A stretch of 64,000 nucleotides of DNA from positions 44,099-108,098 of the forward strand of contig MNRO01000008.1 of the NCBI GenBank assembly GCA_001915995.1. Reading direction: 5' to 3'. The stretch comes from Clostridium sp. 26_21 (lineage in GTDB: Bacteria > Bacillota > Clostridia > TANB77 > CAG-508). Positions within the stretch are counted from its first letter, which is position 1, and every line of letters begins with the position of its first letter. The translations under genes and the position numbers were made by a program. Positions 15,222 to 61,850 of the stretch are shown piece by piece. The notes beneath the pieces are model-generated. The model saw nothing but the letters and a program-made list of their open reading frames with translations. It ran no database searches and had not been told where the DNA came from.

Positions 15222-16802
15222 GTGAAAAGCAATTTTGCAAAATATATATTTATAATATTTATAATTGGAATTACTTTATTTGTAGCATATAAGTTAAATG
15301 AAGAAAAGAAAAATACAACAAACGATGAGCAAACAAATATCGTAAAAGAAGATGATATAGGCAAAGAAATAAAATTAGGAATTGCAGAATTTGATACAAT
15401 AAATCCATTATTAAGTAAAAATAAACAGGTTCAAGAAATTACAAAAATAATATATGAACCTATGCTACAATTAACAAGTGAATATAAATTAGAAAAATGT
15501 TTAGCAAAAGATTGGGCAAAAACAGCAGAAAATAAATATTTAGTAAAACTTGATGATACAATAAAATGGTCTGATGGAAATAGTTTATCAGCAGATGATG
15601 TTGTATTTACAATAGATCAATTAAAAAAAGTAGATTCAATATATTCAGAAAATGTAAAGAATATAACAGAAGTTAATAAAATAGATGATAATACAATAAG
15701 AATAATATTAGACCATGAAATACCTTTTTTTGAATATAACTTGATATTTCCTATATTGAGCAGAAAAAATTATGAAGGACAGGATTTTGTTTATGGTTCA
15801 AGTAATAATGCTCCAATTGGAACTGGAAAGTATAAAATTATACTTAATAGTGGAGAAAATATAATATTAGAAAAAAATGAGAATTATAAGAGATCAGATT
15901 TGACACTTGAAAAAATTACAATAATTAAATATTCCAATATTGGAGAAATGTATAATGCTTTTAAATTAGGGAAGATAGATGTAATAACTACCAATAATAC
16001 ATTAATAGAAAATTATATAGGAACAATAGGATACAACAAATCTGAAATAAATGGAAGAAATTTTGATTTTTTAGCAATTAATACTCAAAATTCGATTTTA
16101 GCTAATAAAGAAGTAAGACAAGCAATCTCAAGAGCCATAAATAGAGAAAGTATAATATCACAAGTATATGGTGGAAAATATAGAACTCAAGACTATTTTT
16201 TAGATTATGGAAATTGGTTACAGGGAGAAAAAACTGACATGTCATATAATATTGATATTGCAAATGAAATATTAGTTAATAATGGTTGGGAGTATAAATA
16301 TAATAGATGGCAAAGATATATTAATTATACTACTCAAATAATAAATTTAAAACTTGTTGTTCAAGCATCAAATGATGCAAGAGTAGCAGTCGCAGATATG
16401 ATAAAAGAAAATTTAGAAGAATTAGGAATGAAGATAACAATTATAAAAGCAACAGATAATCAATATCAATCATATTTAGACAATAAAAATTATGATATGA
16501 TATTAACAGGTGTAACACTATCATTAAGTCCAAATTTAGAAACATTTTTTGGAAATGGAAATTTAGCAAATTTTTCAAATGAAGAATTAAATTCAATAAT
16601 GAATGAAGTAAAAAATATAACTAAAGAAGATTTATTAAAAGAAAAATATATAAGAATTAGACAAATATATAATGATGAAGTACCTTATATAGGATTATTT
16701 AGTAATTATTATGAAGTTGCAAGTAACTGGACTTTAAAAGGCAGTATACCAGCTAATTGGTATAATATATTTATTAATATAGATAATTGGTATAAAAATT
16801 AA
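15222..16802 (+). CDS. ABC transporter substrate-binding protein, family 5 (peptide/nickel type), N-terminally membrane-anchored, orphan
   Basis: GTG start with an AAAGGG RBS, an N-terminal TM helix, and SBP_bac_5-like sequence throughout. No permease or ATPase genes are adjacent. Confidence 0.75.
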   Translation: MKSNFAKYIFIIFIIGITLFVAYKLNEEKKNTTNDEQTNIVKEDDIGKEIKLGIAEFDTINPLLSKNKQVQEITKIIYEPMLQLTSEYKLEKCLAKDWAKTAENKYLVKLDDTIKWSDGNSLSADDVVFTIDQLKKVDSIYSENVKNITEVNKIDDNTIRIILDHEIPFFEYNLIFPILSRKNYEGQDFVYGSSNNAPIGTGKYKIILNSGENIILEKNENYKRSDLTLEKITIIKYSNIGEMYNAFKLGKIDVITTNNTLIENYIGTIGYNKSEINGRNFDFLAINTQNSILANKEVRQAISRAINRESIISQVYGGKYRTQDYFLDYGNWLQGEKTDMSYNIDIANEILVNNGWEYKYNRWQRYINYTTQIINLKLVVQASNDARVAVADMIKENLEELGMKITIIKATDNQYQSYLDNKNYDMILTGVTLSLSPNLETFFGNGNLANFSNEELNSIMNEVKNITKEDLLKEKYIRIRQIYNDEVPYIGLFSNYYEVASNWTLKGSIPANWYNIFINIDNWYKN

Positions 16803-16815
16803 TTATAAAAGTTTG

Positions 16816-16977
16816 AAATATAAGTTTTGCATGAAATGACGAATGTGCATGAAGAAATTTTAGAAATTCTTTGCAATTTTATGGAAAAAGTTCACTTTAG
16901 TGGAAGGGTGCCATAAAATAAGTTAGAATTTCTTAAATTTCGTAATAAGCTGAGGAATGTTTCAATACTTATAATAT
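16816..16977 (+). repeat. copy 1 of a ~165-bp structured intergenic repeat
   Basis: About 94% identical to 19984..20148. Terminal inverted repeat AAATATAAGTTTT...TACTTATAAT, with internal nested palindromes (TTTAGAAATTCT/AGAATTTCTTAAA; TTATGG...CCATAA; TTCAC-ttta-GTG). Confidence 0.8.
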
Positions 16978-17014
16978 GCAATTAAAAAATTATGAAAAAA
17001 TTTCATAAAATTGC

Positions 17015-17042
17015 TTGACAAAAAAACAAAAAAAGATATAAT
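17015..17042 (+). promoter_or_regulatory. sigma-A promoter of recA
   Basis: TTGACA, a 16-nt spacer, then TATAAT. Confidence 0.7.
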
Positions 17043-17050
17043 ATAGATAT

Positions 17051-17064
17051 CGAACAAAGGTTTA
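17051..17064 (+). promoter_or_regulatory. LexA (Cheo/SOS) box of recA
   Basis: CGAACAAAGGTTTA against CGAAC-N4-GTTYC, 9 nt downstream of the -10. Confidence 0.55.
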
Positions 17065-17110
17065 GAAAAAGAGACACAGAAAATAGTCTCAAGAAAGGAA
17101 AGATACAAAC

Positions 17111-18175
17111 ATGGGAGAAAATGCAGAAAAAAGAAAAGCACTAGAAGTAGCAATGAGCCAAATAGAAAAACAATTTGGAAAAGGATCAGTAATGAAATTA
17201 GGAGAATATAAAGCAATGGAGGTAGAAGCAATACCAACAGGAGCTTTAAGTTTAGATATAGCATTAGGAATTGGAGGAGTACCAAGAGGAAGAATTATTG
17301 AAGTATTTGGACCAGAATCTTCAGGAAAAACAACATTAGCATTACATATTATAGCAGAAGCACAAAAAATGGGAGGAGAAGCAGCATTTATTGATGCAGA
17401 GCATGCTTTAGACCCAGTATATGCAAGAAAATTAGGAGTAGATATAGATAATTTAATAGTATCACAACCAGATACAGGAGAGCAAGCCCTAGAAATAACA
17501 GAAGCATTAGTAAGAAGTGGTGCATTAGATGTAGTTGTAGTAGACTCTGTTGCAGCATTAGTACCAAAGGCTGAAATAGATGGTGAAATGGGAGATTCAC
17601 ATATGGGGCTTCAAGCAAGATTAATGTCACAAGCATTAAGAAAATTAGCTGGAGCAATAAATAAATCAAAAACAGTACTTATATTTATTAACCAATTAAG
17701 AGAAAAAATAGGAGTAATGTTTGGAAACCCAGAAACAACAACAGGTGGTAGAGCATTAAAATTCTATGCATCAGTAAGAATGGATATAAGAAAAACAGAA
17801 ATGATGAAACAAGATGGACAAGTTATAGGAAACAGAGTAAGAGTAAAAGTTATAAAAAACAAAGTAGCTCCACCATTCAGAGAAGCAGAATTTGATGTAT
17901 TATATGGAAAAGGAATATCAAAAGTTGGAAATATACTAGATATGGCAGTCAATTTAGACATTGTAGAAAAGAGTGGCGCATGGTTTAGTTATAATGGTCA
18001 AAGAATTAGTCAAGGTAGAGAAAATGCAAAAAGATATTTAGAAGAACATCCTGATATAATGGACGAAATAGAGAAAAAAGTTAGAGATAATTTTGCAAAA
18101 GCATTTGAACAAAGTTTAGGAGAAGAACTTCCATCTGATGATGAAGAAGATACAGAACCAATAGATGAAGAGTAA
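17111..18175 (+). CDS. recA: recombinase RecA
   Basis: GPESSGKTT Walker A, and L1/L2 loop motifs. 354 aa with an acidic C-terminal tail. Confidence 0.97.
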
Positions 18176-18198
18176 TTTTTGAATTATAAAAATCCAGA

Positions 18199-18232
18199 AA
18201 AATAGCAAGAATTTTCTTGCTATTTTTATTAT
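18199..18232 (+). terminator. rho-independent terminator after recA
   Basis: AATAGCAAGA-atttt-CTTGCTATT followed by TTTTATT. Confidence 0.75.
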
Positions 18233-18287
18233 TATAGAATAAAATAAGGCTAGAATTTTTACTATAGAGAAAGGAACAAAATTTATA

Positions 18288-19976
18288 ATGATTAAGAAAT
18301 GGGAAATATACCAAACTAATGAAGAGAAAGTTGAAGAATTACAAAAAAAATACAAATTAAATAAATTATTATCAACATTACTTACAAATAGAGGAATAAT
18401 AGAAGAAGCAGAAATAACAAAATTTTTAAATCCAAAAAGAAGTGATTTTTATGATCCATTTGGAATGCCAGATATGGAAAAAGCTGTTGAAAGAATATTA
18501 AAAGCAATAAAAGATAAAGAACAAATAATAATATATGGTGATTATGATGTTGATGGAATTACAAGTGTAACAGTATTAAAAAGTTTTCTTGAAGAAAGAG
18601 GAATACAAGTAAATGTTTATATTCCAAACAGATTAAATGAAGGATATGGATTAAATAAGACTGCAATGGAAGAAATAGCAAAACAAGGAAACAAATTAAT
18701 GATAACAGTAGATTGTGGAATAACAGCAGTAGAAGAAGTGGAATATGCAAAAAAATTTGGTATTGAAACAATTATAACAGATCATCATGAGCCTGCAGAA
18801 GAATTACCAAAGGCAATAGCAGTAGTAGATGCAAAGAGAAAAGATAATAAATATGAATGCAGAAATTTAGCTGGTGTTGGAGTAGTATTTAAATTAATAC
18901 AAGCATTAAGCATAAAATTAGGATTAGATCAAAAAGAATATTTAAAATATTTAGATATAGTTTGTGTTGGAACAATATCTGATATAGTACCATTAACAGA
19001 TGAAAATAGAGTAATTGTAAAACTAGGATTAAAATTAGTAGAACAAACAAAAAATTTAGGATTAAAAGAAATATTGCAAAGTTGTGGTTATTCAAAAATA
19101 AATTCAACAACAATATCATTTGGAGTAGCACCAAGAATTAATGCATGTGGAAGAATGGGACATCAAGAAGATGCGTTAAATTTATTATTATCAAAAGAAG
19201 AAAATGAAGTAAAAGAATTAACACAAAAAATTAATGAATACAATAAAACAAGACAAGAAATAGAGAAAAATATTTATAATGAAGCTATAGAACAAATAGA
19301 AAAAGAAGAAAATGATAATAAAAATACAATAGTAGTATTTGGAAAAGGATGGCATCATGGTGTTATAGGAATAGTTTCATCAAAAATAACAGAACTATAT
19401 TTTAAGCCAAGTATTTTATTATGTGAAGAAGATGGAGAATGTAAAGGTTCTGGAAGAAGTATACCTGGATTTGATTTACACGAAGCATTAATGGAATGTA
19501 ATGACACAATAGATAAATTTGGTGGACATGCTATGGCAGTAGGAATAAATATAAATAAAGAAAAAATTGAGGAATTTAAAGAAAAATTTGAAAAAATAGC
19601 AAAAGAAAAAGAAATTGATAAAATAATTCCAATTTTAAATCTTGATGCAGAAATAAAACTTGATGATGTAAATAAAGAAATGGTAGACAGTCTAAAAGAA
19701 CTTGAACCTTTTGGAGAAGCTAATAAAATGCCAATATTTGCATTTAAAAACTTAAAAATAGATTCAATAAGATCTCTATCAGAGGGAAAACATTTAAGAT
19801 TATCTGTAAAAGATAATAAAAATATAATTAATGCAATAGGTTTTAATATGGGGGCACTAGCAGATATTTATCGAATTGGTGATAGAGTTGATATTGCAGG
19901 AAATTTAGAAATAAATTCATTTAATGGTGTTGATAGTATTCAAATTAATATTAAAGATATTATGAAATCAATATAA
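18288..19976 (+). CDS. recJ: single-stranded-DNA-specific exonuclease RecJ (short form)
   Basis: DHH motifs (GDYDVDGITS, DHHEP) and a DHHA1 domain. 562 aa. Confidence 0.88.
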   Translation: MIKKWEIYQTNEEKVEELQKKYKLNKLLSTLLTNRGIIEEAEITKFLNPKRSDFYDPFGMPDMEKAVERILKAIKDKEQIIIYGDYDVDGITSVTVLKSFLEERGIQVNVYIPNRLNEGYGLNKTAMEEIAKQGNKLMITVDCGITAVEEVEYAKKFGIETIITDHHEPAEELPKAIAVVDAKRKDNKYECRNLAGVGVVFKLIQALSIKLGLDQKEYLKYLDIVCVGTISDIVPLTDENRVIVKLGLKLVEQTKNLGLKEILQSCGYSKINSTTISFGVAPRINACGRMGHQEDALNLLLSKEENEVKELTQKINEYNKTRQEIEKNIYNEAIEQIEKEENDNKNTIVVFGKGWHHGVIGIVSSKITELYFKPSILLCEEDGECKGSGRSIPGFDLHEALMECNDTIDKFGGHAMAVGININKEKIEEFKEKFEKIAKEKEIDKIIPILNLDAEIKLDDVNKEMVDSLKELEPFGEANKMPIFAFKNLKIDSIRSLSEGKHLRLSVKDNKNIINAIGFNMGALADIYRIGDRVDIAGNLEINSFNGVDSIQINIKDIMKSI

Positions 19977-19983
19977 AAACTAA

Positions 19984-20148
19984 AAAATATAAGCTTTGCA
20001 TGAAATGACGAATGCGCATGAAAAAATTTTAGAAATTCTATGTAATTTTATGGAAAGAGTTCACTTTAGTGGAAGGGTGCCATAAAATAAATTAGAATTT
20101 CTTAAATTTTGTAATAAGTTGAGGAATGTAATAAAAAGCTTATATTTT
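19984..20148 (+). repeat. copy 2 of the ~165-bp structured intergenic repeat
   Basis: A perfect 14-bp terminal inverted repeat AAAATATAAGCTTT...AAAGCTTATATTTT. The internal sequence is about 94% identical to copy 1. Confidence 0.8.
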
Positions 20149-20256
20149 TAGTTATTAATTTAGAATTATATATAAAATTTTTATAAAAGGCTTTAAATTT
20201 AAAACAAAAAGATGTAAAATGTGAAAGAAAAAAAATAAATCAATGGGGGGATTTAT

Positions 20257-26888: not shown

Positions 26889-26951
26889 ATATTGACTAAA
26901 GCCTAAAATTGTTATATTATCAAAATAATAAAAAGCAAAGGAGGGCTTTTG

Positions 26952-27605
26952 ATGATTATCGAAGTTCCAAAAGGCTATACATTCGTAAAGGATGGAGATA
27001 TTATTGCATTTGAAGAAAAAGCTGTTTTAAAGATGAAAGGACGGCAAGGAAAATTTCAAGATATAATGTATGATATAACTTATAGGTTGAAAGGAAGTAA
27101 TAGATGTTATTATTGTGGAGAAGAGGTAAAACCAAATAAAATAACATTAGATCATGTTTATCCACAAGCATTAGGCGGACCAACTATTCCACAAAACATG
27201 GTACCATCTTGCAGAAATTGCAATGGAAAAAAAGAAGATATGACACCAAATCAATTTAGAGCATACCTTAATTTAAAAGATCCAGGTTTGCAAGCACAAT
27301 TTAGGAGAGAGTATTTCCAAACTAAGACATTTCAAACAAGATGGGTACATATTTTGCCAGAAGGTTGGATTAGTGAAACACCTATATCTGATTTAATTGT
27401 AACAATTGATTTATCAGATACAAGTACAAATAAGTATAAAAAGATCAAAGAATATTATGCTAGATGTAGGCAGTTTCCAAAACCAATTATAGTTGATTGT
27501 CACAACTTTGTACTTGATGGTTTTACAGCAGTTCTTTATGCAAAAAATAATCGGATAAAAGAAATACCAACTATTGTTCTTGAAAATGTTGAAGTAATAT
27601 TTTAA
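26952..27605 (+). CDS. HNH endonuclease fused to a C-terminal ParB/Srx-like domain
   Basis: HNH core CYYCG...ITLDHVYPQALGG...NMVPSCRNCNGKK. The C-terminal PIIVDCHNFVLDGFTAVLYAKNNRIKEIPTIVLE resembles the ParB N-terminal nuclease fold. AAGGAGGG RBS 7 nt before ATG 26952. Confidence 0.65.
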   Translation: MIIEVPKGYTFVKDGDIIAFEEKAVLKMKGRQGKFQDIMYDITYRLKGSNRCYYCGEEVKPNKITLDHVYPQALGGPTIPQNMVPSCRNCNGKKEDMTPNQFRAYLNLKDPGLQAQFRREYFQTKTFQTRWVHILPEGWISETPISDLIVTIDLSDTSTNKYKKIKEYYARCRQFPKPIIVDCHNFVLDGFTAVLYAKNNRIKEIPTIVLENVEVIF

Positions 27606-27728: not shown

Positions 27729-27803
27729 GGCCCGTTGGTCAAGCGGCTAAGACGCCACCCTCTCAAGGTGGAATCATGAGTTCGATTCTCGTACGGGTCA
27801 CCA
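27729..27803 (+). tRNA. tRNA-Glu, anticodon read as CUC
   Basis: 75 nt with a cloverleaf, T-loop TTCGATT and a 3' CCA. The backbone is nearly identical to Bacillus tRNA-Glu (GGCCCGTTGGTCAAGCGG...GTACGGGTCACCA). The anticodon loop CTCTCAA gives CUC. Confidence 0.85.
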
Positions 27804-35955: not shown

Positions 35956-37161
35956 ATGCGCAAATATATAATTATTATCTCAATGATTGTAACTATAACT
36001 TTCTCAAATATTTGCGTATATGCAGAAAATATTACAGAATTACAAGAAAAGTCAAATCAAATAAATGAAAATATTACAGAGACAACCAATAGACTTCAAG
36101 CAGTGCAAGAAGAAGTATCTGAAAATATGAAACAATTACAAGAATTAGATGTACAATTGGCCCAATCAGAAGAAGAATTAAATAAAATAAACATAGAAGT
36201 TAGTAATTTAACAAGTCAAATTGCAGAAAATGAACAAAAATTATCAAAAGTACAATCTCAATATGATAAAATAAAAAATGTTTTAGATGCAAGAGTAATA
36301 GAAATGTATAAGTCAGATAATTTACAGTTTTTAGGAGTGTTATTGGCAGCTAAAAATGTAAAAGAACTAATAAAAACATATGAAAAATTAATTTTACTAA
36401 GCAAATATGATAAAGGACTATTAGATAATGCAGAACAACAAATAGAAGAAATTCAGACAACCAAAAAAATATTAGACGAAAAAAAGAAACAAGTAGTTGA
36501 AAGTAAGCAATTGCAACAAAGGAAAACACAAGTAGTACAAAACTCAAAAACAAGAAGAGAATATTATTTAAGTAAATTAACAAAACAGGAGCAGGAACTT
36601 CAAGCACAAATTGATGAATATAATACACAAGTAACTCAAATAGAAAATGAAATAAAAATATTAGCTTTAGGAAGTATAAGCGAAGATTATATAGGAGGAG
36701 TTTTTGTATGGCCTGTTCCTGGAAGAACATCATTAACATCTCTTTATGGAATGAGAGTACATCCAATAACAGGAGCATATAAGTTACATACAGGAATAGA
36801 TATAAGTGCACCACTAGGAACAAATTTTGTAGCTGCTGCGAATGGAGTTGTTTCTAAAGCAACATATAATACTGCATATGGTAATATGGTAATAATTGAT
36901 CATGGTGGAGGAGTACAAACATTATATGCACATGGAAATTCAATTTTAGTACAAGTTGGAGATGAAGTTAAGGCAGGAACACCAATTTTGGAAGTAGGCT
37001 CAACAGGATATTCAACAGGACCACATGCACATTTTGAAATAAGAATAAATGGTCAAACAGTAAATCCATTAGATTATTATCAGAATAAAAATAATATAAC
37101 ATCAAGTACTAAAGAAAAAAATGAAACAAAAAATACGGTAGAAAGTACAGAAAACAATTAG
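35956..37161 (+). CDS. coiled-coil M23 peptidoglycan endopeptidase (PcsB/EnvC-like), copy A
   Basis: Signal peptide, about 230 aa of heptad coiled coil, then a C-terminal LytM/M23 domain (HTGIDISAP...GNMVIIDHGGG...GSTGYSTGPHAHFEIR). Confidence 0.85.
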   Translation: MRKYIIIISMIVTITFSNICVYAENITELQEKSNQINENITETTNRLQAVQEEVSENMKQLQELDVQLAQSEEELNKINIEVSNLTSQIAENEQKLSKVQSQYDKIKNVLDARVIEMYKSDNLQFLGVLLAAKNVKELIKTYEKLILLSKYDKGLLDNAEQQIEEIQTTKKILDEKKKQVVESKQLQQRKTQVVQNSKTRREYYLSKLTKQEQELQAQIDEYNTQVTQIENEIKILALGSISEDYIGGVFVWPVPGRTSLTSLYGMRVHPITGAYKLHTGIDISAPLGTNFVAAANGVVSKATYNTAYGNMVIIDHGGGVQTLYAHGNSILVQVGDEVKAGTPILEVGSTGYSTGPHAHFEIRINGQTVNPLDYYQNKNNITSSTKEKNETKNTVESTENN

Positions 37162-37193
37162 AATTCTTGAAAATACAAGAAAGGAAAAATGTT

Positions 37194-38366
37194 ATGAAAA
37201 ACAAAATGGTAGAGATTTTTGGAATAATGGTAGCATTTGTTATAATTTTTCAGAATATATCTTATGCTACAAATTCTAAATCTAGTTTAAAAAATCAACA
37301 ATCTGAAATTGATGATAAAATTGACAGTTTAAAAAATGAACAGAAAGAAATACAAGCAAATAAATCTGAAACGATGCAGTCTGTAGAAAATTTAATATAT
37401 CAAATCTCAACAGTTGAAAATGAGATCAATGATTTAAAGAGCCAAGTTAAAGATTTACAAGCACAAATTTATGCAACAGAAAAAGACATAGAACAGAAAG
37501 AAGAAGAATATAATAAACAAAAAGAATTGTTAGATGCTAGAGTAATAGCTTTATATAAAAATGGAGATAATTCATATTTAGAAATATTTTTGTCATCATC
37601 TAATTTGAAAGATTTTTTATCAAAATATTATTATGCAGAAGCACTTATGAATGCAGATAAAGAATTTATGAGTAAGGTAACTGACGAAAAAAATCAAATT
37701 GAAGAGAGAAAAAAAGAACTAGAAAAAAGTAAAAATGATTTAAATGATGCGCTTTCTGCACAACAATCAAAACAAAATTCATTAGAGAGATTAAAATCTG
37801 AAAAAGAATCTTATGCAGCAAAATTAACAGCAGATGAAAAAGAAAAGCAAAAGGAAATAGAAAGATTTGAAGAAGATAAAAGACAAATACAAGCAGAGCT
37901 AGAGCGAATTGCAAAAGAAGAAGAAGAAAAAAATAGACAAAATATAATTTCACAACCAAGTGCAAGTGGATATATTTTTCCAGTTCAAGGATTATCAAAA
38001 TCAAATATAAATAATAAAAATTATCCATCATATGCAGGGCATACAGGTGTTGATGTAAATATTGGAGTTGTTGGAAAAAATGTAGTTGCAGTAAAGTCAG
38101 GTACAGTTGTTATATCAACAGCACGTATAAGTAATGGAAGATATTATAGTTATGGTGAATATATTGTTATAAGTCACGGAGATGGGACGATGACATTATA
38201 TGGACACATGTTAGCTGGTTCAAGAAAGGTACAAAGAGGAGAACATGTTTCACAAGGTCAAGTTATAGGAACAGTTGGATCAACAGGAAATTCAACAGGA
38301 ACACATCTACATTTTGAAGTTAGAGTTGGAGGAAAACCTGTAAATCCATTACCATATTTACCATAG
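37194..38366 (+). CDS. coiled-coil M23 peptidoglycan endopeptidase, copy B (paralog)
   Basis: Same architecture as copy A (HTGVDV...GSTGNSTGTHLHFEVR). AAGGAAA RBS 6 nt before ATG 37194. Confidence 0.85.
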   Translation: MKNKMVEIFGIMVAFVIIFQNISYATNSKSSLKNQQSEIDDKIDSLKNEQKEIQANKSETMQSVENLIYQISTVENEINDLKSQVKDLQAQIYATEKDIEQKEEEYNKQKELLDARVIALYKNGDNSYLEIFLSSSNLKDFLSKYYYAEALMNADKEFMSKVTDEKNQIEERKKELEKSKNDLNDALSAQQSKQNSLERLKSEKESYAAKLTADEKEKQKEIERFEEDKRQIQAELERIAKEEEEKNRQNIISQPSASGYIFPVQGLSKSNINNKNYPSYAGHTGVDVNIGVVGKNVVAVKSGTVVISTARISNGRYYSYGEYIVISHGDGTMTLYGHMLAGSRKVQRGEHVSQGQVIGTVGSTGNSTGTHLHFEVRVGGKPVNPLPYLP

Positions 38367-41716: not shown

Positions 41717-41744
41717 TAAGAAAAAATTAATATAAAATAGCAGG

Positions 41745-41777
41745 AAAAATCTTGCTATTTTATTGTTGATATAATAT
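41745..41777 (+). terminator. rho-independent terminator after lexA
   Basis: ATAGCAGG-aaaaat-CTTGCTAT followed by TTTATTGTT. Confidence 0.7.
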
Positions 41778-46084: not shown

Positions 46085-46645
46085 TTATTTTAAATAATCT
46101 AAAGGATTTTCGTATTTGTCATTAATTCTGAAACCAATATGAAGATGGCAACCTGTTGTAGCACCATTTGTAGGTTTTCCATTAGCGGAATCAAAATAGT
46201 TATTTCCAACAACACCATATACATATTTAGGTCCTACATTTCCAATTATTTGTCCTTTTTTTACATGGTCTCCAACAGAAACTATAAAAATAGGTGAAAC
46301 ATGACAATATGAAATTTTTATATTATTATTAGTTAATGTTATTGTATAACCACCTCCACCAAGAAAACCTGTAAATGTTATAATTCCATCACAAACAGCT
46401 AATAGTCTTGTTCCTTCAGGGGCTGGAATGTCAGTTCCTTTATGAAATGAAGATGCTCCAGCCGTAGGAGAAATTCTTTTGCCAAAAGGAGAGGAAATAA
46501 TTGTATATCCAGGAATTGGCCATATATATTCTGAAGTATTTAATGAAATCGAAGGAGTTTCAGAAATCGAATTAAATAATATTGGAATAAATAAAATAGA
46601 TATTAAAAATAAATAAGATATAAGAAAAAATACTATTTTTTTCAA
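46085..46645 (-). CDS. small membrane-anchored M23 metallopeptidase
   Basis: TM helix, then a LytM domain (FHKGTDIPAPEGT...GGGGYTITL...GATTGCHLHIGFR). Confidence 0.8.
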   Translation of the reverse strand: MKKIVFFLISYLFLISILFIPILFNSISETPSISLNTSEYIWPIPGYTIISSPFGKRISPTAGASSFHKGTDIPAPEGTRLLAVCDGIITFTGFLGGGGYTITLTNNNIKISYCHVSPIFIVSVGDHVKKGQIIGNVGPKYVYGVVGNNYFDSANGKPTNGATTGCHLHIGFRINDKYENPLDYLK

Positions 46646-48425: not shown

Positions 48426-48545
48426 TTAGCAACATCCACCTCTGTTACCACCACAGCAGCAACAAATTAAAAGTATAAGAATTATTATCCAGCAGCAGTC
48501 ATCTCCAAAACCAAAGCCACATCCACAACCTCTATTTTCTGGCAT
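48426..48545 (-). CDS. YjcZ-family tiny Cys/Gly-rich sporulation membrane protein (39 aa)
   Basis: Perfect AAGGAGGTG RBS 8 nt before ATG. MPENRGCGCGFGFGDDCCWIIILILLICCCCGGNRGGCC. It is absent from the ORF track because it is below the size cutoff. Confidence 0.6.
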   Translation of the reverse strand: MPENRGCGCGFGFGDDCCWIIILILLICCCCGGNRGGCC

Positions 48546-51280: not shown

Positions 51281-53005
51281 ATGAAAAAAAAGGTAATTTT
51301 TATCTTAATAATGATAATTTTAATATTGCAATATTTTTGCTTTTTTACTAAAACATTTGCAGTAAATCAAACAATTAGTCAAGATATAGAAAATATAGAT
51401 TCAAATACATGTCCACAAATAAAAGAAATGATACAAAATCTAAAAAAAGAACATTCAAATTGGAATTTTAAAATATTATATACAGATTTAGATTGGAATG
51501 AGGTAATTGAAAATGAATATGTAGGACATGGTTCATCACCAAGAAACTTAGTACCAACAAGTAGTTCATATGCAGGAGAATGGATATGTCCTATTTGTGG
51601 TGATACAACATATGATTCTGGAAAATGGCATTGTGCATCACAATCTGCATTAAAATATATGATGGATCCAAGAAACTCATTAAATTCGTCAGATATTTTT
51701 CAATTTTTAGAATTAACATATACAGATTATAAAATTGAGACAATACAAGCAATGTTAAAAAAATATGATTTTTGGAATAATGAATCATACATAAATGCAA
51801 TTATAGAGGCATCAAAAAAATATAATGTAAATGTTTATTATGTAATAGCAAGAATATTACAAGAACAAGGAAATGGAACATCACCATTAGTAAAAGGTGA
51901 AGGATATAATGATCAATATATTGGGGTATATAATGTATTTAATATAGGAGCTAGTGGAAGTGGAAAAGACAATGTTATATTAAATGGACTTGCTAGGGCA
52001 GAACAAGAAGATTGGACATCAATTGAATTATCAATAGATGGAGGTGTTGAATTTATTTCAAAAGGATATATTAATAGAGGACAAAATACAATGTATCTTC
52101 AAAAATTTGATGTTGATAGTTCAGAAACTGGATTATATTGGCATCAATATCAACAAAATATAATGGCACCACAAAATGAAGGAACAAAATTAAGAGTAGC
52201 ATTTGAAGAATGTGGATCAATAGATATGGATTATACATTTATAATTCCAGTATATAAAAATATGCCAGATAATATATGTACAAAACCAAATTTAGATGAA
52301 AATAAAATAACAGAGATAGATAGTAATCTAGTTAAGTGTAATGCGGACCCAAGTTTAAGATTAAGAGATAAACCAAATGGAACATATATTGGAGAAAAAA
52401 TATATTTAAATGAAGTTGTAACAGTATTAGAAAAGGCTACAGAAAAAGTAGGTGGAACATATTGGGACTTAATAAAAAAATCTAATGGAATAGAAGGATA
52501 TGCAGCAAGAGAAACTTATGAATATGAAGAAAATTATAAATTATATTTAGTCTCTATAAAAAATATAGATGATCAGAAAAAAGATGAATCAGATAATGAT
52601 GACACAAAAGAAATAATTGAAAATGATAAAATAAGAATAAATAATAAAACCACACAGATAACATCAATTCCAAATTGTACAGTTAAAGATTTGAAAGAAA
52701 TTTTAGGAGAAGAAATAATTGTAAAAGATATAAATGGAGAAAAAATTCAAGATGATTTAAACATTGCTACAGGTTATAAAGTTGATGAAAAATATACAAT
52801 TTCAGTTTTAGGAGATGTTAATGGTGATGGAAAAATGAATTCAGCAGACTTATTAGTAATTCAAAAAGATTTATTAAAAGTAAAAAAAATTAATAATGAA
52901 TATAAAAAAATATCTGCAGATGTAAATCAAGATGGAATAATAAATTCAGCTGATTTACTGAAAATCCAAAAACAATTGTTAGGTGTTTCAAAAATAGAAA
53001 TATAA
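51281..53005 (+). CDS. secreted GH73-like N-acetylglucosaminidase with a C-terminal type-I dockerin
   Basis: Signal peptide. A glucosaminidase-like core (YYVIARILQEQGNGTSPL...NVFNIGA). The C-terminus has two Ca-binding dockerin segments (DVNGDGKMNSADLLVIQKDLL and DVNQDGIINSADLLKIQKQLL). Confidence 0.7.
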   Translation: MKKKVIFILIMIILILQYFCFFTKTFAVNQTISQDIENIDSNTCPQIKEMIQNLKKEHSNWNFKILYTDLDWNEVIENEYVGHGSSPRNLVPTSSSYAGEWICPICGDTTYDSGKWHCASQSALKYMMDPRNSLNSSDIFQFLELTYTDYKIETIQAMLKKYDFWNNESYINAIIEASKKYNVNVYYVIARILQEQGNGTSPLVKGEGYNDQYIGVYNVFNIGASGSGKDNVILNGLARAEQEDWTSIELSIDGGVEFISKGYINRGQNTMYLQKFDVDSSETGLYWHQYQQNIMAPQNEGTKLRVAFEECGSIDMDYTFIIPVYKNMPDNICTKPNLDENKITEIDSNLVKCNADPSLRLRDKPNGTYIGEKIYLNEVVTVLEKATEKVGGTYWDLIKKSNGIEGYAARETYEYEENYKLYLVSIKNIDDQKKDESDNDDTKEIIENDKIRINNKTTQITSIPNCTVKDLKEILGEEIIVKDINGEKIQDDLNIATGYKVDEKYTISVLGDVNGDGKMNSADLLVIQKDLLKVKKINNEYKKISADVNQDGIINSADLLKIQKQLLGVSKIEI

Positions 53006-53017
53006 AGGAGAAAGACA

Positions 53018-54424
53018 ATGCCAAAAAAGTTAAAAAAATATTTTATAATACTAGTTTTTTGTGCTAGTTTACTAGGGTTTAATAATTTTGTTGAAGCAGC
53101 TAGTGCAAAATTAACAGCTAGCTCAAATGAAGTAAATGTAGGTGAAGAGGTTACAGTAACAGCTAATATTGTTGCTGGTAGTTGGAATTTAACACTTACA
53201 GGTGCTGGAAAGTCAGAAGGAATAGTTGGTCAAACTAGTGAGACTGCAAATGAAACAAAAAGTGTAAATATAACATTTACACCACAAGAAGCAAATGAAT
53301 ATAAATTTCTGTTGAAAGGTGATATTACTGATTTTTCAACAGAAGTTACTGAAATGATCTCAGAAGAAATTGTAGTAAAGGCAATAGAGAAAGAAGATAC
53401 AAACCAAAATACAGATGATAATAAAATAGACAATACAAATCAAAATAATAATTCAAATATAAATAATAATACAAATAATAATACAAAAAAATCATCAGAA
53501 GCTAGATTAAGGGATTTGGGGTTAAATCCAAAACAATATGATTTTAAAGGATTTAAATCAGATATATATGAATATAATATAGAAGTTCCAAATGAAGCAG
53601 AAAAAGTATATATATATGCAACAACAAAAGACAAAAATGCAAAAGTAAAATCAGGAGATGGTAATATTGCATTAAATGAAGGAGAAAATAAAATTGAAAT
53701 TGTAGTTGTTGCAGAAGATGGAAAAACAAAGAAAACATATACATTAAATATTACAAGAAAAGCAGTTGAACAAACAACTGCACCAGAAGAACCAGTAATA
53801 GATGAGCAACCACAAACTGAATCAACAACAATTTCAACAGCAGAAGAAACTTCTTCAACAATAGTTTCAGAAAATACAAAAATAACAACTTCAACAACTA
53901 AAACAGAAAGCATATCAACTAAGGATAAAAGTCAACAAATTGTTGGAAAAGTAAATTGGATTAAACCAGAAACTTGGGGAAAAGAACAATATATTTTAAT
54001 TGCAATTTTGGCATTTTTAGTATTAACAATAATAGTTTCAATAATATTAAAAATAAAAATTAGAAAAGATGAAGAGGAAGAAATTGAATTTCCAGGTGCA
54101 GAAGAATTGGATAGAGCAATGTTTGAACATCAAGAATTATCAGATAATGAAAATTATAAAAATATGAATGATGAAAATCCATATAATACTAATTTTAATG
54201 ATGAATATTATGTATCAGATAATAATCAAGTATATGATGAACAAATAAATAATCAATTAAAAAAAGAGGAAAACAAAGACGAAAATATTTCTAATGATAA
54301 TGTATCAGAAAAAAATGATGATGAAATAGAAAGAAAGAGAATGCTTGAAGAGTATTTTTCAAACCAAAATGGAAAAAATACTGAAGAAAAAAGAGTTAAA
54401 TCTAAAGGTAAACATTTTGCTTAA
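53018..54424 (+). CDS. single-pass membrane protein with an N-terminal beta domain, a cadherin-like beta-sandwich domain, a Thr/Ser linker and an acidic cytoplasmic tail
   Basis: Signal peptide. A ~100-aa beta-rich domain. A cadherin-like domain (LRDLGLNPKQYDFKGFKSDIYEYNIEVP...YTLNITRK). A TM helix ILIAILAFLVLTIIVSIIL. An Asn/Glu/Asp-rich tail. It starts 12 nt after the dockerin gene. Confidence 0.6.
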   Translation: MPKKLKKYFIILVFCASLLGFNNFVEAASAKLTASSNEVNVGEEVTVTANIVAGSWNLTLTGAGKSEGIVGQTSETANETKSVNITFTPQEANEYKFLLKGDITDFSTEVTEMISEEIVVKAIEKEDTNQNTDDNKIDNTNQNNNSNINNNTNNNTKKSSEARLRDLGLNPKQYDFKGFKSDIYEYNIEVPNEAEKVYIYATTKDKNAKVKSGDGNIALNEGENKIEIVVVAEDGKTKKTYTLNITRKAVEQTTAPEEPVIDEQPQTESTTISTAEETSSTIVSENTKITTSTTKTESISTKDKSQQIVGKVNWIKPETWGKEQYILIAILAFLVLTIIVSIILKIKIRKDEEEEIEFPGAEELDRAMFEHQELSDNENYKNMNDENPYNTNFNDEYYVSDNNQVYDEQINNQLKKEENKDENISNDNVSEKNDDEIERKRMLEEYFSNQNGKNTEEKRVKSKGKHFA

Positions 54425-54467: not shown

Positions 54468-56837
54468 ATGAATAATATTATTAAAAAAGATGGGATAACA
54501 TTAATAGCTTTAACGGTAACAATAGTAGTGCTGTTAATAATATCTGGAGTTACAGTATCACAAATCATTGGAAGTGGAGTAATAAAACAAGTAACAACAG
54601 CAAAAGATAATACTAATAAAGCAGAAGAAAAAGAAATATTAAGAACATCAGTTATTACTGCTCTTGGAAAAAGTAGTAGAGCAAAAGTAGAAGAAGCACA
54701 TTTAAAGGTTAATTTTGAAAAGAACATAGGAGAAGAAGGAAAAGATTATACAATAACAAAAGTTCAAGAAGAAGATGGATCAAAACATTTTAATATTGAA
54801 TTTTTGAAATCAAAAAATCAATATACAATCTTAGAAGATGGAACTGTTTTAGATAGAAATGATTATGAAGGAGATATAACAACAGATTCAGAAGAGTTAT
54901 TAGTAATAGAAGTAGGAGAGACTACAACAATAACAGTAGAAACAAATTCAAATGATCCTGTAACTTGGAAATCAACAAATGAATCAGCAGCTGAAGTAAA
55001 GGTTGAAGATATAAGAAATACACATACTGCAACAATAAGAGGGGTAGCAAATTGTGATGAATTAACAATAGTAGCATCATTATCAAATGGTAAAAAAATA
55101 GAAAGAAAAGTAAAAGTACAAACAAGTCCTAAAAGTATAACAATAACTAACAAAAATAAGGTAACAATAAATTTGGGCTCAGGAGTTGATTTTGTACAAT
55201 TACAGACAAAAATTGAACCTGATACTGTTAATGTAAATCAAAATTTAACATGGAAAAGTAGTGATAACAAAATTGCTAAAGTAGATCAAAATGGTAGAGT
55301 AGTAGGATTGGCAAATGGAACAGTAATAATTACTGTAACAACACAAAATGGAAAAGAGGACTCTTGTTCAGTATTAGTACAAACAAGTCCAAAATCAATA
55401 AAGCTAAATCCAGAAACAATAACATTAGATAAAAGTGGAACAAATACTCAAATTTTGTCTGTTAGTTTTGAACCTAGTTATTCAAATATAGAAAATGCAA
55501 TAAGTTGGAGTTGTTCAGATACAAGCAAAGTTGCTATAACAGAAGTAAAAGATGAAAAAGGATCTACAAATGGAAAAATTATGGTAACTGGAAAAGCAAA
55601 TGGAACAGTAAAAATAACAGCTACTACAGCAAATAAAAAATCAACAACTGCTACAGTAATAGTACAGACAACTCCCAAATCTATATCTTTAGTTCCTAAT
55701 AGTTTAAACTTAGATATGAGTGGAACTGCAAGCAAAAAGCTTGAGGTAAGTTTTGTTCCTCAGGATTCTAATACTAAAAATGGTATAACTTGGACAAGTA
55801 GTAATCCAAGTATTGCTACTGTTGACAATTATGGAAATGTAACAGCAAAAGCAAATGGAGATACGGTAATAAAAGGAAGAACGGAAAATGGAAAAGAAGC
55901 AAGTTGTAATGTGCATGTCCAAACTAGTTTAAAAACAATATCTTTAAATAAGACAAAATTATCATTTGACATGAGTAGTGGAAGTAAGTCAGAAAGATTA
56001 AATGTTAGATTAAATCCTTCAACAGCAAATGTAAATACAGGAATAACATGGTCAAGCAGTAATACTAATGTAGCAACTGTTGATGGAAATGGTAATGTTA
56101 CGGCAGTAGGAAATGGAGGAGCAACGATTACAGCAAAAGCACAAAACGGAAGTACAGCAACATGTTCAGTTGGTGTAATAAGATCTATAGTTAGTTTATC
56201 AGTAAGTCCATCAAGTTCAAAAATATTTGTTAATGGAACAGTGCAATTAAGTAAAAGTATAAACCCATCTAATACAACAGAAGGAACTATCTGGACAAGT
56301 AGTAATACTAATGTTGCAACTGTAAATAGTAATGGACTGGTTACTGGTAAGAATGAAGGAACAGCTACAATTACATTAAAGAATTCTAATGGAAATAAAT
56401 ATGCAACATGCCAAATAAAAGTAATTGGATATAGAACATTTAGTATATCTAGAAGTTTTTGGACAACTGGAGAGGTAAATGCTGGTTGGCATGTATGTCA
56501 AGGTGAAGTAAGTTTTGGAGAAGCAAGAAATATAGTATCAATATCTGGATGGGGAAAAGTAGGTGAAACCGGAATGTGGGATGAAGTAAAGTTTGGACTA
56601 AGAATAAGAGCCTACAATGGAAGTAGCTGGGAAACATTATGGGAAGATTATGAATCAATATACCGTTGGTGGGGAGAAAGAGGCGAAATGTATAGAGATA
56701 TTTCTCTTTCATTAAACAAAAAATATACAATGTTATCATGTGATTTCTATAATGATAAGTGGATTAATAAAAATTGGTGGGCCGACGATCCTAGAGATTC
56801 AAGTTTTGGATTGACAGTAACATATTATAATGATTAA
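54468..56837 (+). CDS. giant Big_2-repeat surface protein, paralog 1 (pilin-like N-terminus, unique C-terminal domain)
   Basis: MNNIIKKDGITLIALTVTIVVLLII N-terminus, a conserved N-module, at least 6 Big_2-like repeats, and a Trp-rich ~170-aa C-terminal domain. Confidence 0.7.
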   Translation: MNNIIKKDGITLIALTVTIVVLLIISGVTVSQIIGSGVIKQVTTAKDNTNKAEEKEILRTSVITALGKSSRAKVEEAHLKVNFEKNIGEEGKDYTITKVQEEDGSKHFNIEFLKSKNQYTILEDGTVLDRNDYEGDITTDSEELLVIEVGETTTITVETNSNDPVTWKSTNESAAEVKVEDIRNTHTATIRGVANCDELTIVASLSNGKKIERKVKVQTSPKSITITNKNKVTINLGSGVDFVQLQTKIEPDTVNVNQNLTWKSSDNKIAKVDQNGRVVGLANGTVIITVTTQNGKEDSCSVLVQTSPKSIKLNPETITLDKSGTNTQILSVSFEPSYSNIENAISWSCSDTSKVAITEVKDEKGSTNGKIMVTGKANGTVKITATTANKKSTTATVIVQTTPKSISLVPNSLNLDMSGTASKKLEVSFVPQDSNTKNGITWTSSNPSIATVDNYGNVTAKANGDTVIKGRTENGKEASCNVHVQTSLKTISLNKTKLSFDMSSGSKSERLNVRLNPSTANVNTGITWSSSNTNVATVDGNGNVTAVGNGGATITAKAQNGSTATCSVGVIRSIVSLSVSPSSSKIFVNGTVQLSKSINPSNTTEGTIWTSSNTNVATVNSNGLVTGKNEGTATITLKNSNGNKYATCQIKVIGYRTFSISRSFWTTGEVNAGWHVCQGEVSFGEARNIVSISGWGKVGETGMWDEVKFGLRIRAYNGSSWETLWEDYESIYRWWGERGEMYRDISLSLNKKYTMLSCDFYNDKWINKNWWADDPRDSSFGLTVTYYND

Positions 56838-61823: not shown

Positions 61824-61850
61824 AAAATGAAAATAAAAGGAGATGATAGT

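Follow-up and report, generated by a model that had tools for sequence, protein, structure and literature searches.

Two near-identical copies of a structured repeat enclose the recA and recJ genes in a 64,000-nucleotide stretch of contig MNRO01000008.1 from Clostridium sp. 26_21 (the whole stretch is called the window below; its GC content is 26.6%). What kind of element is this repeat, and does its position around these two genes have any meaning? A preliminary description of the window had reported two direct copies of about 94% identity, the first starting 14 nt past the stop codon of an SBP gene and the second 8 nt past that of recJ. Both points were confirmed. By blastn, the copies at 16816-16960 and 19985-20129 share 93.8% identity over 145 nt in direct orientation (E ~1e-60), and the distances hold for the stop codons of the SBP_bac_5 gene (16800-16802) and of recJ (19974-19976). 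The 64 kb contain exactly these two copies, which lie 3169 bp apart with exactly two genes, recA and recJ, between them. Our analysis indicates that they probably belong, as short forms, to an undescribed family of mobile repeats that fold into hairpins and are non-autonomous, similar to miniature inverted-repeat transposable elements (MITEs) and to REPINs (hairpins made of two repetitive extragenic palindromic, REP, sequences).

The unit is by no means confined to the window. The preliminary description held that a repeat family would fail if the genome had only these two copies and made no transcript. A profile search with nhmmer found at least 174 copies in low-GC uncultured Clostridia of the human gut, spread over 164 stretches (single loci and contigs are cited here by L numbers). 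The 150 complete copies form 94 clusters at 96% identity. The exact 20-mer CTTTAGTGGAAGGGTGCCAT from the apex of the hairpin had 31 matches, distributed over 30 stretches; the 17 species-representative assemblies concerned were all labelled uncultured Clostridia bacterium or Clostridium sp. and had a GC content of 24-29%. A degenerate gapped pattern of the core was present in at least 120 metagenome-contig stretches, and all source-stating record names among the matches listed referred to the human gut. The CAUWFE01 genome carries at least 10 copies and other genomes carry 2-4. Nine loci retrieved via the GreA protein, in search of more insertion sites near those of the window, contained no further copies. 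There was no match to the core pattern in a viral contig scan and none to the element in BLAST searches of plasmid and phage collections. In the full-text literature, the core and terminal strings matched only unrelated mammalian primers, and a search combining MITE, Clostridia, gut and hairpin found no paper. As far as sampled, the family is limited to a clade of uncultured human-gut Clostridia of about 24-29% GC. The exact RecA protein of the window was found in 5768 blocks of the assembly collection under the source labels Clostridium sp. or Clostridiales bacterium. This means that the host is a very common gut organism, one of the uncultured low-GC Clostridia that are most widespread in the human gut.

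Direct copies around exactly two genes could be the footprint of a local duplication or rearrangement, which the preliminary description had also considered, or they could be attC-like boundaries of an integron cassette. The alleles of related strains contradict this. At 10 loci with a RecA identical to that of the window, site 1 (the position of copy 1) was filled in 5 cases and empty in 5; at site 2 there were 2 filled and 8 empty loci. Each of the four possible combinations occurred (site 1 only, site 2 only, both, neither) and the gene order did not change. In a larger set we counted 22 filled and 5 empty alleles at site 1, and 17 filled and 12 empty ones at site 2. The 300-nt flanks of the filled L039 and the empty L031 and L036 were 100% identical. 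The copies at each site share 96-98% identity with their orthologues as opposed to 93-95% with the copies at the other site, and the window copies themselves are nearer to their orthologues, at 96-97% identity, than to each other, at 93.5%; the same unit is found at dozens of unrelated loci in many genomes. Against attC sites stand also the ends of the element, CTAAAAAATATAAG... and ...CTTATATTTTTAG, which lack the RYYYAAC...GTTRRRY signature, its length (170-465 nt compared with 57-141 nt), the isolated copies in both orientations, the absence of an integrase, and the fact that recA and recJ are the flanked genes in all strains, with and without the elements. Neither window copy depends on the other, or on recA and recJ, for its gain or loss. 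Because the sites are independent and many unrelated loci carry the unit, its placement around recA and recJ is a coincidence, and we see practically no chance that a duplication or a cassette explains it.

The comparison of filled and empty alleles also defined the inserted segments. Empty alleles of site 1 (L032-L034, L038, L040) read GATTATAAAA joined directly to TTATGAAAAA, and those of site 2 read AATATAAAA joined to TTTTGATAAAAGG. The filled alleles have an extra 196 nt at site 1 and 200-211 nt at site 2, and the right junction of the extra segment repeats ATTA(G/A)AAAA or ATATAAAA, respectively. The direct repeats are thus 9 bp at site 1 (ATTATAAAA, 8/9 matching) and 8 bp at site 2 (8/8), as seen at two informative loci in AT-rich DNA. 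Each insert is asymmetric and consists of the hairpin and a 12-18 nt tail on its right-hand side.

In the window, the left direct repeat of copy 1 (ATTATAAAA, 16802-16810) shares the last base of the SBP stop codon. It is followed by the inserted segment, a short form of 179 nt on the + strand (16811-16989; nhmmer 143.6 bits), which takes in the right direct repeat and is scarred by an internal 16-nt deletion. The left inverted repeat (GAAATATAAGTTTT, 16815-16828) finds its partner, AAAACTTATATTTC, in L035 and L020, where the orthologous copy is intact. Then come the inner module (16829-16959) with the apex TTTTATGG / AAAAAG / TTCAC-TTTA-GTGGA / AGGGTG / CCATAAAA (16877-16918), and a remnant of the right inverted repeat (TTTCAATAC, 16960-16968). 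Alignment with L031, L035 and L020 places the missing 16 nt, AATAAAAAACTTATAT, immediately before this remnant. They make up most of the right inverted repeat and are present in L031, L035-L037 and L039. The right tail TTATAATATGCA and the direct repeat ATTAAAAAA (16981-16989) complete the segment (tail and repeat together 16969-16989), and they were found in every filled and in no empty allele. The tail keeps its right-hand place in both orientations of the inner module. The deletion bears on the compensatory change that the preliminary description had drawn in the closing stem. The T-A pair is real in intact orthologues of copy 1, and so in the ancestor, where AAGTTTT / AAAACTT stands against AAGCTTT / AAAGCTT in copy 2. 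The pairing drawn for copy 1 of the window was wrong because its right arm has lost the 16 nt, and the sequence that had been paired, ACTTATAAT, belongs to the tail outside the true right arm.

Copy 2 is an intact short form. Its left direct repeat (ATATAAAA, 19971-19978), identified by comparison with empty alleles, overlaps the recJ stop codon, and the inserted segment of 199 nt (19979-20177, + strand; nhmmer 148.4 bits) takes in the right direct repeat at 20170-20177. The inverted repeats CTAAAAAATATAAGCTTT (19980-19997) and AAAGCTTATATTTTTAG (20135-20151), which had been correctly recognised before, are evident from both the sequence and the fold. They enclose the inner module (19998-20134) with the apex TTTTATGGAAAGAGTTCACTTTAGTGGAAGGGTGCCATAAAA (20046-20087). 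The tail TTATTAATTTAGAATTAT, again followed by ATATAAAA (20152-20177), is missing from empty alleles and does not change sides between the + and - forms of the module. In L032, L039 and L132, the region corresponding to 19968-19978 of the window reads ...AAATC TTTATGATATCTAAATATAACA in place of ...AAATC AATATAAAA, and recJ therefore ends with TCT TTA TGA (its last two codons and the stop) and not with TCA ATA TAA. By this comparison, the insertion region has rewritten the 3' end of recJ in this lineage.

How is the element built? Each strand of both window copies folds into one long hairpin (z -2.9 to -8.1 against dinucleotide shuffles), and the nested palindromes noted in the preliminary description are seen in the folds of both. 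The whole family is one long hairpin in three size classes: short (~170-200 nt), medium (~255-290 nt) and long (~465 nt), with the window copies belonging to the short form. The medium form has the ends GTTAC..GTTAATGG / CCATTAAC..GTAAC. The long form carries the 15-nt terminal inverted repeat TGTTACAATTCACAG, found at 8 loci as inward-facing pairs ~450-470 nt apart, and the fold of the whole element has -198 kcal/mol. Its outer arms were never found without the apex and stand in a fixed left/right relation to it; a nested MITE as the origin of the long form is thus ruled out in the sampled sequence.

All classes share a near-invariant 42-nt apex, TTTTATGG-AAAGAG-TTCAC-loop-GTGGA-AGGGTG-CCATAAAA. 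It comprises a 5-bp apical stem with an invariant U.G pair, which became C-G in two copies, a purine-rich 6x6 internal loop and a stem of 8-9 bp. The apical loop varies: TTTA occurs in 78 copies, GAGA in 31, TTTTA in 19, GATA in 11 and GAAA in 4, besides several loops of 7-8 nt. In some copies the apex is extended by 21 nt, and the stems of this extension covary in their turn (GUC/GAC with GCC/GGC; AC-GAA-GU with GC-GAA-GC). Below the apex follow two helices, TAGAAATTCT/AGAATTTCT and GAAATTTT/AAATTTC, and a large internal loop with the conserved sequences CGAATGTGCATG on the left and AAGCCGAG on the right. Two internal-loop motifs are nearly constant, CGAATGTG... in the left arm and ...CCGAG in the right arm. 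A 5-bp helix reads AUGAC/GGAAU, with tandem G.A/A.G pairs, in the subfamily of the window and is Watson-Crick paired in others. The closing inverted repeats ...ATATAAGCTTT/AAAGCTTATAT... are copy-specific in their outer part, yet complementary. Three by-eye interpretations did not match the consensus of the apex (K-turn, loop-E, tetraloop receptor), and a hammerhead-like CUGANGA in the right arm of copy 1 was discarded since most copies have CCGAGGA or CUAAGGA there. A terminator scan found no intrinsic terminator at either window copy. The terminator-like features that we saw are the stem end UAUAUUUUU of copy 2 and, in long forms, an inner hairpin flanked by an A-run and a T-run, and the family consensus has only CUUAUAUUUCAA.

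The stems are maintained throughout the family, which extends the covariation first suggested by the two window copies. In the RNAalifold structure of 33 copies, 34 of the 52 pairs showed compensatory double changes. The partners were paired in 93.7% of cells, compared with 39-52% when they were slid by 1-3 columns, and there were 232 double-change cells against 59-75 in the slid controls; none of 500 shuffles reached the observed values. A set of 84 diverse inner modules gave the same picture (93.5% paired against 37-53%; 206 double-change cells against 21-51). The element is a gene-less, dispersed, insertion-polymorphic hairpin repeat with flanking direct repeats and an invariant, structurally constrained centre. 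Of the readings proposed in the preliminary description, it was the intergenic REP/MITE-like element that gained by these results: the family is dispersed and multi-copy, both sites are polymorphic, and the inserts have short direct repeats and no coding capacity.

What does the invariant centre stand for? It had been noticed that both window copies contain an 11-codon open reading frame, and one may ask whether the centre encodes the peptide MEK/RVHFSGRVP. The 36-nt frame from ATG to TAA is indeed intact in both (16881-16916 and 20050-20085) with a conservative Lys/Arg change. Across the family it breaks. The 5-nt loop TTTTA shifts the frame in 19 copies (ATG GAA AGA GTT CAC TTT TAG), the 21-nt extension stops it after six codons in 13 copies, or 14 with the second L011 copy (...CAC GTC TAA or ...CAC GTC GAA...), and TTAATGG/CCATTAA variant copies have no stop codon. 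Moreover, it is the nucleotides that are conserved, synonymous positions included, no ribosome-binding site precedes the frame, and ATGG pairs with CCAT in a helix. Since the frame is broken in several groups of copies, we regard it as a by-product of this ATGG/CCAT helix and give a conserved peptide virtually no credence.

The centre could instead be a functional structured RNA, either a small RNA or a cis-acting 3'-untranslated-region or terminator element, which the palindromic carrier merely spreads or stabilises. The host may then keep the copies for the function of the RNA, for example protein binding through the purine-rich 6x6 loop AAAGAG/AGGGUG. Much in the structure fits such an RNA. 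Five helices covary over 84 diverse copies, the apical loops (GAGA, GATA and GAAA among them) are interchangeable, the 21-nt extension covaries, the tandem G.A/A.G helix has Watson-Crick counterparts elsewhere, and the otherwise invariant apical U.G has its C-G replacements. On the core-sense strand of the inner helices, G.U-type pairs exceed A.C-type pairs by 40 to 15 (alignment A3) and by 16 to 2 (arm against arm), in counts that are not phylogenetically independent, and the outer arms show no such bias (34 G.U-type to 54 A.C-type). The copies also usually lie just past a stop codon, so read-through transcription would span them.

Other results were less favourable to an RNA. None of 4227 Rfam families matched the element at gathering thresholds in a search of the window. 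When a window copy and a long-form copy were searched at E up to 10, only generic long-hairpin matches (miRNA precursor, pntA) appeared, far below the thresholds. There is no conserved internal promoter; the candidate TTCACT-17-TAAAAT in the apex matches 9 of 12 positions and is no commoner than in shuffles. The orientation relative to genes is mixed (22 same strand, 38 opposite) and flips between orthologues, therefore read-through would yield the sense RNA at only some loci. The copies are dispensable, with empty alleles being common, and orthologous copies diverge by 2-6%, which is no slower than the neighbouring non-element spacers (0-2.5%). Stable mini-hairpins of the GNA and GCGAAGC types form in single-stranded DNA as well, so the loops cannot separate RNA from single-stranded DNA. 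Taken together, we find it unlikely that the inner module is kept as a functional RNA.

The inner module is also found in the opposite orientation. In CAKOVS01 (L020), a genome ~94% identical to the window, it is reversed in both orthologous copies, as collinear and reverse-complement alignments showed, with the flanks, inverted repeats and right-hand tails remaining collinear with the window. At site 2, it is also reversed in L032, L039 and L132. Both orientations occurred in 4 of 15 orthologous groups, all four being short forms with perfect inverted repeats. The breakpoints lie within the inverted repeats, the flipped inner segment is ~130 nt long, and the side of the asymmetric tail does not change.

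Such in-place flips could reflect a phase-variable switch (inverton), in which a site-specific recombinase would turn the 130-nt module and thereby switch the neighbouring genes. The position of the breakpoints would fit, as would the reversal of all three sampled CAKOVS01 copies relative to their relatives and the single inverted-repeat consensus shared by dispersed copies, as in master-invertase systems. However, orientation follows the haplotype, and the assemblies of near-identical strains all have one orientation. At site 1, the + form was present in 21 assemblies from different samples and the - form only in L020, which is a different species-level genome; at site 2, the - form accompanies a 13-nt difference in the flank. 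Three further assemblies with the exact RecJ protein of the window have its orientation at both sites. Medium and long forms were never seen inverted, no recombinase gene lies in the window or beside any sampled copy, and no promoter within the module stands out above chance. In addition, recA has its own perfect sigma-70-type promoter, TTGACA-N16-TATAAT, between copy 1 and the recA start (17015-17042). Since orientation tracks lineage or haplotype, the flips are probably rare evolutionary events and not fast switching, and we hold a regulated switch to be highly improbable.

The recA promoter is found in filled and empty alleles alike, so copy 1 was inserted upstream of it and did not replace it. 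On the other side of recA, we observed that its terminator hairpin (18198-18227, AAAAATAGCAAGAATTTTCTTGCTATTTTT) and the one after lexA (41734-41761, AAAATAGCAGGAAAAATCTTGCTATTTT) are 72% identical over 60 nt (repeat family D19); judging by this similarity, the two SOS genes appear to share a terminator sequence.

Where do the copies lie, and what could move them? None of the 94 representatives overlaps a credible gene. The genes around them are co-directional in 60 cases (22 with the copy on the same strand, 38 opposite), divergent in 13 and convergent in 9; these 9 of 94 speak against an early impression that the copies shun convergent intergenic regions. The median position is 32 nt past a stop codon and 117 nt ahead of the next start. 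The neighbours are housekeeping genes, including those for histidine kinases, HisRS, penicillin-binding proteins, MgtE and SpoIIP. When 648 neighbouring open reading frames were clustered in search of an enriched hidden transposase, only housekeeping families emerged. We found no transposase or recombinase beside any sampled copy or in the window. In the ~1.25 Mb sampled, paired ends never enclosed a gene and no copy had a transposase within 2.5 kb, which is an absence from the sample and not proof. Likewise, the 8-20 kb stretches around the matches contained no gene for a REP-associated tyrosine transposase (RAYT, a Y1 HUH transposase).

Several points weigh against a mobile repeat of the MITE/REPIN kind. 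An autonomous partner or mobilising enzyme was not found in the stretches around the copies (whole genomes were not scanned). The filled and empty pairs come from two loci only, and the direct repeats of 8-9 bp lie in AT-rich DNA, one pair being imperfect. The long forms have no consistent target duplication, and a single long copy is flanked on both sides by AATTTAAA. The insertion at each site is common to lineages that are 6-13% apart at four-fold sites, which makes the filled state at both window sites older than the split of the sampled lineages. Empty alleles that are nested among filled ones would therefore most readily be explained by precise loss or by shuffling of alleles, and what is directly observed is loss or allele shuffling, not fresh insertion. 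An invariant centre with variable ends is the reverse of a classical MITE. The core owes some of its invariance to the two collection scans, both of which demanded it. Finally, the GNRA-type loops, the apical hairpin, which varies in length and itself covaries, and the ~3:1 excess of G.U-type over A.C-type mismatches in the inner helices fit a functional RNA at least equally well.

A non-autonomous mobile hairpin nevertheless remains our preferred reading, and its behaviour could be pictured as follows. An enzyme encoded elsewhere in the genome would move the element in trans. It would recognise the folded single strand (single-stranded DNA, possibly RNA) by the invariant apex and the internal loops and not by the ends, and the centre would therefore be conserved while the ends are copy-specific yet complementary. 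The complementarity of the arms may be kept by selection for folding, or one arm may be copied from the other during transfer or repair; such copying would account for the perfect copy-specific outer stems and the stepwise size classes. Losses would be precise deletions by slippage between the flanking direct repeats, favoured by the palindrome. The in-place flips would be rare events in which the inverted repeats of 14-25 bp recombine or the template is switched between them, with no regulated switch involved, and effects on neighbouring genes, such as a hairpin in the 3'-untranslated region or termination, would be by-products.

A bolder proposal is that the invariant centre is an uncatalogued strand-specific folded module, being either a new structured RNA borne and copied by its palindromic carrier or the recognition hairpin of a single-strand (DNA or RNA) transposition system. 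Such a module would comprise the 42-nt apex and its 6x6 purine loop, the internal loop CGAAUGUG/CCGAG, and the helix with either tandem G.A or Watson-Crick pairs. In the case of a recognition hairpin, the system would read the middle of its substrate, and the carrier would grow from ~170 to ~465 nt by copying arm onto arm. We regard this proposal as possible though doubtful.

For those who assemble or compare genomes of this host, the element has practical consequences. Metagenome contigs often end or mis-join within it, so it breaks and misleads the assemblies of the organism. For example, in contigs L147, L136 and L130 the recJ-side flank of site 2 is joined through the element to either flank of a third site (the L002/L016/L025 locus), either because the assembly is chimeric at the repeat or because copies have truly recombined. 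Sites that are filled, empty or flipped are ready-made strain markers, and, as in the recJ lineage above, the element can rewrite the end of a gene, namely the last two codons and the stop. Beyond this, the reversed conservation, with an invariant centre and variable yet complementary ends, suggests that a folded single strand is recognised and that one arm is copied onto the other. Should the enzyme be found, it would stand for a new mode of small-DNA movement. Should the centre instead be a working RNA, it would form a new class of non-coding RNA spread by its own carrier. If neither is true, the family is one more selfish hairpin repeat.

The comparison of related contigs also revealed what appears to be another small mobile element of this species. 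It is an unrelated, GC-richer insertion of 128 nt that starts with the palindrome TATATACTAGGAAAGTTCTCTGAACTTCCTAGTATATA and is present in L166 and L169 (~17935-18062), whereas the window lacks it at the corresponding position, ~48410. The site is the spacer between a VWA gene and a U32 peptidase gene, directly after a terminator-like hairpin. A Cys/Gly-rich open reading frame of 39 codons (MPENRGCGCGFGFGDDCCWIIILILLICCCCGGNRGGCC) lies at 48426-48545 on the - strand of the window; it is called as a gene in the related contig L168, and presumably resembles the small YjcZ-type sporulation membrane peptides.

The window has further features of its own. A S-adenosylmethionine (SAM) riboswitch (Rfam RF00162, 75.6 bits; 707-808) lies directly upstream of the S-adenosylmethionine synthetase gene (945-2063). 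Its largest repeat families stem from the genes of three paralogous large proteins with tandem Big_2 (bacterial Ig-like) domains (54468-56837, 59556-61823 and 61827-63998) with a DNA period of 255 nt; adjoining them are genes for a dockerin-domain protein (51281-53005) and a cadherin-like protein (53018-54424). Two paralogous M23 peptidase genes (PcsB-like coiled coil and M23) stand side by side at 35956-37161 and 37167-38366 downstream of ftsE/ftsX, and a third M23 gene is at 46085-46645. A stand-alone HNH endonuclease gene of 218 residues (26949-27605) lies just upstream of a tRNA gene (27729-27800).

How does the family compare with known systems? Bacterial MITEs such as Correia/nemis of Neisseria, RUP of Streptococcus pneumoniae and ERIC/IRU of enterobacteria have been reviewed (PMC3184786). 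The family shares with them the small size (<200 to ~400 bp), the lack of genes, the several intergenic copies and the long stem-loops, as well as terminal inverted repeats, short flanking direct repeats and differences in presence between strains (PMC3184786). It measures 170-465 nt, its sole internal frame is the non-conserved 11-codon one, and there is no transposase gene inside. Its terminal inverted repeats are 18/17 nt in copy 2 and TGTTACAATTCACAG in the long form, with the outermost sequence of short forms being copy-specific. MITEs, however, keep their ends, which are the transposase sites shared with the parent insertion sequence, and drift in the middle, while here the middle is invariant and the short-form ends vary. 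A parent insertion sequence with matching ends was not found in the sampled stretches. Other differences are the low number of only ~2-10 copies per genome and the lack of similarity to phage and plasmid collections or to Rfam.

The bcr1 repeat of the Bacillus cereus group comes close in several respects. In the account that the review gives of it (PMC3184786, citing Okstad 2004, Klevan 2007 and Kristoffersen 2011), bcr1 also lives in a Firmicutes host and is ~155 bp long, its distribution is not conserved between close strains, it has short flanking direct repeats, compensatory base changes maintain its structure, and it has no known transposase. The gut family differs from it in forming a single long hairpin, in the 8-9 bp length of its repeats, in its three nested size classes and in its in-place inversions. 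Transcription of bcr1 has been demonstrated, according to the same account (PMC3184786).

REPINs, which are mobilised by RAYT (TnpA-REP) enzymes, are also non-autonomous two-arm hairpins with compensatory changes and an extragenic location, and their excised unit is asymmetric with a one-sided tail, like the indels at both window sites (PMC3116915). As with REPINs, one can plausibly picture a single-copy enzyme that works in trans on a folded single strand. Here too the conservation is opposite: REPINs conserve the terminal REP sequences and vary in the spacer, while the gut family has an invariant apex and variable short-form ends. REPs are short, GC-rich sequences tagged with GTAG or CGTC, in contrast to the AT-rich elements of 170-465 nt with long- and medium-form ends GTTAC...GTAAC. 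RAYT systems have been described mainly in Proteobacteria.

For the flips, Kelchner and Wendel reportedly described in 1996 how, in the non-coding DNA of chloroplasts, hairpin loops between inverted repeats undergo small inversions, and Bi and Liu are said to have shown in the same year that inverted repeats stimulate inversion through template switching. The shared feature is that perfect inverted repeats of 14-25 bp enclose a short segment which occurs in either orientation in related lineages with no recombinase nearby; those cases are single loci and not a dispersed family. Single-strand origins of the ssoA type from rolling-circle plasmids of Firmicutes are imperfect hairpins of 150-300 nt that work only as one folded strand. 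They resemble the gut family in having a conserved apical motif and stems conserved in pairing over sequence. However, ssoA is a single-copy part of a plasmid with CS-6 and RSB motifs, whereas our elements are chromosomal and dispersed, have other motifs and match nothing in the plasmid collection. We class the family apart from MITEs, REPINs, Rfam families and attC sites because no parent insertion sequence or RAYT gene was found, its conservation is reversed, no Rfam family matched and the attC signature is absent. Altogether, the element is best filed within the known class of non-autonomous hairpin repeats, with a conservation pattern that is the reverse of that of MITEs and REPINs.

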